NCBI RefSeq assembly: GCF_003334355.1 | Contig: NZ_QOWP01000010.1 | Strand: one strand, 5' to 3' | DNA: 64,000 bases | From: Escherichia coli | GTDB lineage: Bacteria; Pseudomonadota; Gammaproteobacteria; Enterobacterales; Enterobacteriaceae | Program-made: the position numbers and the translations under genes | Shown: positions 59,095-59,325 of the stretch, one piece after another | How positions within the stretch are numbered: the stretch's first letter is position 1 | How the letters are laid out: each line of letters starts with the position of its first letter | The notes under the pieces: generated by a model | Told to the model about the DNA's origin: nothing | What the model saw: the letters and a program-made list of their open reading frames with translations, nothing else | Database searches by the model: none

Positions 59095-59122
59095 ATCCTT
59101 TTCAGCCGCGTAATGGCTTGTT

Positions 59123-59138
59123 TGCAAAGTGGATGCCA
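59123..59138 (-). promoter_or_regulatory. Candidate sigma54 (-24/-12) promoter of the rut operon
   Basis: Minus-strand sequence TGGCATCCACTTTGCA matches TGGCAC-N5-TTGCA spacing, about 30 bp upstream of the rutA start. Confidence 0.6.
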
Positions 59139-59325
59139 GTTTTTAAAAAAGTGAATGTTATTAATGTGTTAATGTTAAGTTATCTAAAATATCTGGTAAA
59201 AAGCGGACTAAACGGTCAAAACAGTTGCACATAAAACATGCATCCGTGCGCGATGAGAGTGCAGAAGGTCGAGGCCGGGCGGGGGTTTTGCTATCCTGTT
59301 GCCAATCTACAAGAGGGGAGAGCGC

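Follow-up and report, generated by a model that had tools for sequence, protein, structure and literature searches.

The divergent rutA-rutR control region of an Escherichia coli genome: published regulatory elements, the start of RutA translation and a conserved element in the rutA leader

The divergent control region of rutABCDEFG and rutR is already well studied, and both its promoter and its repressor site are published. The K-12 allele of the promoter, CTGGCATCCGCTTTGCA, corresponds to the ChIP-seq peak OS10, which was assigned to rutA in a table that puts the K-12 start codon 18 nt beyond the predicted transcription start and marks the promoter 'predicted' rather than 'confirmed' ('P', not 'C') (Bonocora 2015); the same allele was also recovered as a genomic SELEX site of the RpoN holoenzyme, with and without NtrC, and a 2024 paper draws NtrC sites at the rutA promoter. 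For the repressor, the K-12 rutA/rutR ChIP-chip site TGGACTAAACGGTCAA (11/14 consensus positions; Shimada 2008, Table 1) coincides with a site found earlier by SELEX and footprinting. RutR binds the K-12 rutA/rutR fragment in gel-shift assays with a KD of 8.6 nM and is released by uracil with an I0.5 of about 9 nM, and a four-base operator mutation in the box abolishes the uracil-sensitive autoregulation of rutR. The published position of the box is downstream of the rutR start and upstream of the sigma54 promoter. A third regulator enters through ArcA, whose ChIP peak at rutR/rutA in K-12 is among the strongest (height about 36), with a box of 19.1 bits made of three repeats, and the operon is listed as ArcA-repressed (Park 2013).

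We examined this region in a stretch of 64,000 nucleotides of E. coli DNA (contig NZ_QOWP01000010.1 of assembly GCF_003334355.1; hereafter the window), in which the spacer 59095..59325 separates rutA on the minus strand from rutR on the plus strand (ATG at 59326). The 901 bp around rutA-rutR are 100% identical to ATCC 8739 and are found in 5,422 of 5,426 complete E. coli genomes, and the exact 61-nt spacer allele of the window is common to 207 of about 5,400 E. coli records. Outside those 901 bp, scattered mismatches and small indels (4, 10 and 182 bp) separate the window from the ATCC 8739 record NZ_CP022959.1; judged by these differences, its source is a related strain or a mosaic distinct from that record. 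For comparison we fetched 80 rutA loci from Enterobacterales and built an alignment of 20 Enterobacteriaceae sequences (A1), in which the NtrC sites, the RutR box, the ArcA repeats and the promoter stand out as invariant blocks amid free-running sequence. These features, ordered from rutR towards rutA, are:

59326..59964, plus strand: rutR coding sequence, a TetR-family repressor starting MTQGAVK
59263..59247: distal NtrC site, TGCACTCTCATCGCGCA, 9/12 consensus positions, centred at -143, 21 bp from the proximal site
59242..59226: proximal NtrC site, TGCATGTTTTATGTGCA, 9/12 consensus positions, centred at -122, strongly conserved in A1
59204..59219, both strands: RutR box, plus CGGACTAAACGGTCAA / minus TTGACCGTTTAGTCCG, 16 bp, centred at -99.5 from the predicted rutA start
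59155..59186, plus strand: ArcA-P site with three direct repeats, ATGTTATTAATGTGTTAATGTTAAGTTATCTA, placed from Park 2013 and the TGTTA repeats
59139..59123, minus strand: sigma54 (-24/-12) promoter rutAp, CTGGCATCCACTTTGCA, with GG at 59137-59136 and GC at 59125-59124
59112, minus strand: predicted rutA transcription start, placed 19 bp beyond the motif centre (59131) following Bonocora 2015

The sigma54 promoter and the RutR operator

The original prediction placed a near-consensus -24/-12 element on the minus strand at 59123..59138, some 30 bp upstream of the annotated rutA ATG. Both the string, TGGCATCCACTTTGCA, and its coordinates are correct, and its last base lies 29 bp upstream of the ATG at 59094..59092. 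Against TGGCAC-N5-TTGCW it shows a single mismatch, a C to T change that is common in real sites, and its GG and GC dinucleotides are 10 nt apart; with the start predicted at 59112, GC falls at -13/-12 and GG at -25/-24. The window allele CTGGCATCCACTTTGCA has A where the K-12 allele has G at a single position of the non-consensus spacer, and is otherwise identical to it. A motif matching TGGCA[CT]-N5-TTGC[AT] lies upstream of rutA in all 80 Enterobacterales loci, 56-185 nt (mostly 93-107) from the ATG of MKIGVF, and this conservation together with the published sigma54 binding in K-12 bears out the reading of the element as a sigma54 promoter. A scan of the whole window for the sigma54 motif, allowing at most one mismatch, returned 2 matches where 3.6 were expected. 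The second of these (TGGCACCTCTTTTGTT, 50648-50663, minus strand) is devoid of the -12 GC and lies 4-19 nt upstream of the start of agp, on the opposite strand to that gene; it is most likely a chance match. Just downstream of the rut operon, in the rutG-ymdF spacer, CCGGCATGAACAATGCG (53529-53545, plus strand) corresponds to OA02, a sigma54 ChIP-seq site classed as 'intergenic antisense' (Bonocora 2015).

The predicted RutR half-site, a TGGTCAA-like motif noticed in the string tggtaaaaagcggactaaacggtcaa, turned out to belong to a real and published site, but not to a lone half-site: the quoted string, present on the plus strand at about 59195..59219, holds the right half of a complete 16-bp box at 59204..59219. 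The RutR consensus used in that comparison, TTGACCAnnTGGTCAA, is the published one. Against this 16-bp palindrome TTGACCGTTTAGTCCG agrees at 10/14 positions and keeps the key positions 4 (A) and 13 (T). A RutR motif scan of the window with up to three mismatches does not return the box among its matches, and 58 strand-hits are equally good. The window box differs from the K-12 site at the outermost position only (59204), where it has C-G for T-A, which lowers the match from 11/14 to 10/14; the T at the outermost position of the box is contacted by Tyr56 of RutR (Nguyen Le Minh 2010). In all 80 loci a RutR box lies 69-90 bp upstream of the sigma54 motif, so that the distance between the two is nearly constant. 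From its sequence, one base off a K-12 operator with demonstrated binding, we read the window box as the RutR operator. Loci of Erwiniaceae and Yersiniaceae (Pantoea, Erwinia, Serratia and Yersinia; L031-L079 of our set) have a pair of RutR boxes, spaced 19 bp apart and lying roughly 170-195 nt upstream of rutA; the E. coli counterpart of the second is a degenerate TTTACCAGATATTTTA (9/14; 59185-59200 in the window), whose TGGTAAA opens the string quoted in the original prediction.

Elsewhere in the window, TTGACCACACGGTCCA (2212-2227, plus strand; 12/14) is the intragenic fabA ChIP-chip site of RutR at +117.5 (Shimada 2008), contained in fabA at 1818..2336 on the minus strand. A further sequence, TTGACCATTTTGTCCA (31518-31533), matches the RutR consensus at 12/14 positions with positions 4 and 13 kept, a score that would place it level with known high-affinity sites; located within gfcE, about 140 nt from the start of the gene, it is missing from the published ChIP-chip list (Shimada 2008).

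NtrC and ArcA sites and the working of the divergent region

Upstream of the RutR box, two 17-mers were scored with the NtrC consensus TGCACCAnnnTGGTGCA; each agrees with TGCACCNNNNNGGTGCA at 9/12 positions, and both are conserved in A1. Between the box and the promoter, the ArcA repeats begin at 59156 (TGTTA), 59167 (TGTTA) and 59178 (AGTTA), with a centre-to-centre distance of 11 bp, and the arrangement TGTTA-N6-TGTTA is kept in 21 of 81 sequences, mainly Enterobacteriaceae. At four bases the window site ATGTTATTAATGTGTTAATGTTAAGTTATCTA differs from its K-12 counterpart ATGTTATTAATCTGTTAACATTACGTTATCTA, and the changes create an extra TGTTA at 59173. An IHF site in the same AT-rich block (WATCAANNNNTTR with one mismatch, 59159..59171) was considered and dropped, since such matches number 59 in the window, in line with the 51 expected by chance, and the block coincides with the three-repeat ArcA site of Park 2013. 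Relative to the predicted rutA start, the layout is thus a promoter at -12/-24, ArcA repeats from -43 to -74, the RutR box at -99.5 and NtrC sites at -122 and -143, and all four element types sit inside or beside the promoter and leader of rutR.

A strict sigma70 scan of the spacer found no rutR promoter. We would guess that the sigma70 promoter of rutR lies in or near the AT-rich block, with TTAATG-18-TAAAAT (59161..59190) as a candidate that fits the published placement of the RutR box downstream of the rutR start. A separate block closer to rutR, TTTTGCTATCCT (TTTTGCTATGCT in relatives; 59286-59297, plus strand), lies 29-40 nt before the ATG of rutR, hardly varies among Enterobacteriaceae (A1) and is present in 39 of 81 sequences, accompanied by GTCGAG at 59268-59273. 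It could be a second rutR promoter, with a -10-like TATSCT, or another binding site.

We regard it as highly likely that this interval serves rutABCDEFG and rutR as their divergent control region and works as published, with RutA translated from 59037 (see below). On this reading, sigma54 RNA polymerase would be held in a closed complex on the -24/-12 element (59139..59123) and would fire only when NtrC, phosphorylated under nitrogen limitation and bound at -122 and -143, reaches it through a DNA loop. Without uracil, a RutR dimer would occupy the single 16-bp box at -99.5, between enhancer and promoter and 6 bp from the proximal NtrC site; its repression of rutA would most likely come from interference with the assembly of NtrC or with looping. 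Such interference is the simplest reading of the geometry, given that a footprint of the size seen at carAB (about 26-28 bp) would border on the proximal NtrC site or extend into it. From the same box, just downstream of the rutR start, RutR would repress its own gene, as published, and uracil would release it from the DNA. On its three repeats between the RutR box and the promoter, ArcA-P would shut off this oxygen-requiring pathway when oxygen is lacking, a role for which ChIP and expression evidence is published and the mechanism is our proposal. Transcription is predicted to start near 59112 and translation of RutA would follow from the ATG at 59037, behind GAGAGG. Published work shows that loss of RutR alone leaves rutA off, which is consistent with an activator-dependent sigma54 promoter. 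This account re-derives the published regulation of the Rut pathway and adds little that is new in itself; everything in the original prediction was previously known, and the sole possibly new item is a conserved element in the rutA leader.

The start of RutA translation and the conserved leader element

Downstream of the promoter, the relevant features, all on the minus strand, are:

57946..59037: rutA coding sequence in its very probable true extent, 363 aa, starting MKIGVF
59044..59049: Shine-Dalgarno sequence GAGAGG, with 6 nt between its last G and the ATG at 59037
59038..59094: 19-codon N-terminal extension of the K-12 model (MQDAVPRL...), read here as non-coding leader
59111..59074: conserved leader element of about 40 nt, with two arms and two GGA motifs and the K-12 'start codon' inside
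59111..59105, 59098..59096, 59093..59083 and 59080..59074: its parts, namely arm ACGCGGC, GGA, UGCA-GGA-CGCA and arm GCCCCGU (alignments A1 and A2)

The closeness of the promoter to the annotated ATG had been taken to imply either a very short leader or a downstream start at MKIGVF, at about 59037. The second option is clearly favoured over the very short leader by the evidence of orthologues, family profile, RefSeq annotation and crystal structures: ATG AAA ATT GGC occurs exactly at 59037, and all 80 orthologues start MK[IV]GVF with GAGG 5-7 nt upstream, at essentially the same distance throughout. The distance from promoter to ATG, ranging from 56 to 185 nt, behaves as non-coding sequence. 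RefSeq annotates 363 aa on the identical ATCC 8739 sequence and leaves the K-12 'start' without annotation in other E. coli genomes. We therefore take the ATG at 59037 to be very probably where rutA truly starts, and the 382-aa K-12 model to be an accidental open frame, 19 codons too long. Together with the predicted transcription start at 59112, this start gives a leader of about 75 nt, inside which the ATG at 59094 falls. An overlong model has consequences for expression constructs (the additional residues were present in PDB 5WAN), for proteomics databases and for distances measured from promoter to gene, the '18 nt' of the sigma54 ChIP-seq table among them.

Within this leader, spanning about +2 to +39 of the predicted transcript, the conserved element equals the promoter in conservation. 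In Enterobacteriaceae it reads rCGnGGCUgAAnAGGAnAUGCAGGAUGCAGCGCCnCGy, and in Pantoea, Erwinia and Serratia AGCGCCGC...GGA...GCAGGA[U/A]GCA...GCAGCGCG, so that it is kept across Enterobacteriaceae, Erwiniaceae and Serratia. It is present in about 60 of 82 sequences and cleanly deleted in about 20 lineages; leaders of 40-54 nt without it occur in the Enterobacter hormaechei/cloacae group, Buttiauxella, Yersinia and a few others. Its left arm starts 10-14 nt after the -12 element in every case, and its distance to the Shine-Dalgarno sequence varies.

Several other readings of these sequences have to be set against the ones adopted here. The motifs might be chance matches in an AT-rich spacer, with the real control elements elsewhere. 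Sequence alone fails to separate either the sigma54 motif or the RutR box from chance in the window, and a simple sigma70 scan of the spacer is empty; the case therefore rests on binding experiments and conservation, and here the published in vivo and in vitro binding to near-identical K-12 sequences, with both motifs present in 80/80 loci where we estimate about 0.06 chance sigma54 matches per locus, makes coincidence scarcely credible. It is also very improbable, on our assessment, that the K-12 model is right and RutA is a 382-aa protein translated from the ATG at 59094 behind a leader of only about 18 nt. That model has the curated K-12 annotation NP_415532.3 behind it, which starts at the equivalent of this ATG; the frame is open in K-12 and in the window, most Enterobacteriaceae keep the ATG and a GGA close to it, and PDB 5WAN was expressed from the 382-aa form. 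Yet AAGGA stands only 1 nt before the ATG at 59094, and a stop closes the frame upstream of MKIGVF within 14 codons in 38 of 80 loci. Within E. coli, a CGA to TGA allele interrupts the extension in 15 complete genomes (also in locus L003, 1436-1500), where RefSeq annotates nothing. Only about one third of loci have the conserved QDA frame in register with rutA, as expected at random; the family profile TIGR03612 (RutA, a luciferase-like monooxygenase) matches the 382-aa form over residues 20-373 with its positions 1-354 (727 bits, where the cut-off is 498), thereby beginning at residue 20; and the crystal structures PDB 6SGG and 6SGL were obtained with 363- and 364-aa constructs. The in-frame stops, the random frame, the profile and the RefSeq annotation lead us to reject the N-terminal extension as part of RutA; given the curated annotation and 5WAN, a minor long isoform may occur.

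The same ATG could instead open a short regulatory upstream ORF, encoding a leader peptide MQDAAPR... that controls rutA and was fused to it in frame by accident in E. coli. Such an ORF would account for the ATG or GTG and the upstream GGA kept in most Enterobacteriaceae, for changes that fall at third-codon positions (GAT/GAC, CCA/CCG/CCC, CGT/CGC), and for a frame that in several species ends in a TGA overlapping the rutA ATG. We nonetheless think it rather unlikely, because several Erwinia, Pantoea, Serratia and Klebsiella loci that still have GCAGGA[TA]GCA carry TAG, TCG, CCG, CAG or CTG in place of the start. Length, stop position and frame relative to rutA are all variable; in the variable fifth codon the changes fall on the first two bases and the third is fixed, the reverse of what coding sequence would show; only 0-3 nt separate the GGA and the start codon; and the non-coding left arm upstream is equally conserved. 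As an obligatory feature, an upstream ORF is ruled out by the start codon missing from several loci that keep the element.

Returning to the leader element as a non-coding feature, its arms are complementary over 6-7 bp with one mismatch, and one arm pair covaries (A-U/G-C, in 8 sequences), maybe through a single event. Most predicted folds show an outer stem and a UGCA-GGA-UGCA hairpin, with z-scores of +0.2 to +1.4; in all 13 single-sequence leaders folded, the structure was less stable than shuffled controls, and RNAalifold gave only 5 pairs at -2.6 kcal/mol. Given these folds, the few RNAalifold pairs and the one covarying pair, any RNA structure here is putative. An Rfam search of 58900..59400 gave no match up to an E-value of 10, a repeated motif was dismissed because E. 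coli genomes carry the 51-nt leader sequence only once, and a literature search on the rutA leader element, and on rutA with CsrA, Hfq or small RNAs, found nothing relevant. With regard to CsrA, which typically calls for two or more GGA motifs with at least one of them in a hairpin loop, the element has two conserved GGA motifs, displayed on a hairpin in predicted folds only; no such motif covers the Shine-Dalgarno sequence or start codon, as GAGAGG is without GGA and the element ends about 25 nt upstream. As a lead rather than a result, the occurrence of two A(N)GGA motifs at the transcript's 5' end hints at binding of the CsrA type or at a stabiliser hairpin. We tentatively put forward, as a possibility with somewhat less than even prospects, that the element exerts a post-transcriptional control on the Rut operon that has not been described before; in it, a GC-rich stem would enclose the two GGA motifs, and it would serve perhaps as a CsrA-type site or a 5'-terminal stabiliser hairpin. 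A 75-nt leader with a conserved element offers a handle on the silence of rutA in the absence of RutR, and on any control of pyrimidine catabolism after transcription.

Comparison with described systems

Among described leaders, flhDC exemplifies the 5'-proximal CsrA-bound type and ompA the 5'-terminal stabiliser hairpin. Like these, the rutA leader has two A(N)GGA motifs 9-12 nt apart at its extreme 5' end, one of which could be presented on a short hairpin, and a GC-rich stem beginning at about +2 to +4 would enclose both; unlike them, it has no GGA over the Shine-Dalgarno sequence, its predicted fold is no stabler than shuffles, and it shows only one covarying pair. The promoter shares its locus, orientation and architecture with K-12 rutAp, the sigma54/NtrC promoter of the b1012 operon, with NtrC sites in the same places, and differs from it by strain-level base changes only. 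The operator, likewise, is the same 16-bp box at the same position as in K-12 (Shimada 2007, 2008; Nguyen Le Minh 2010, 2015), with positions 4 (A) and 13 (T) kept, and departs from it in having C-G, not T-A, as its outermost base. In a wider comparison, the region resembles the NtrC/sigma54 promoters of the glnAp2 type in its two NtrC sites more than 100 bp upstream, in its absolute dependence on an activator and in a closed complex visible by ChIP. In contrast to that type, rutA has a TetR-type repressor box and a multi-repeat ArcA site between enhancer and promoter, and its control DNA is shared with a divergent sigma70 promoter.
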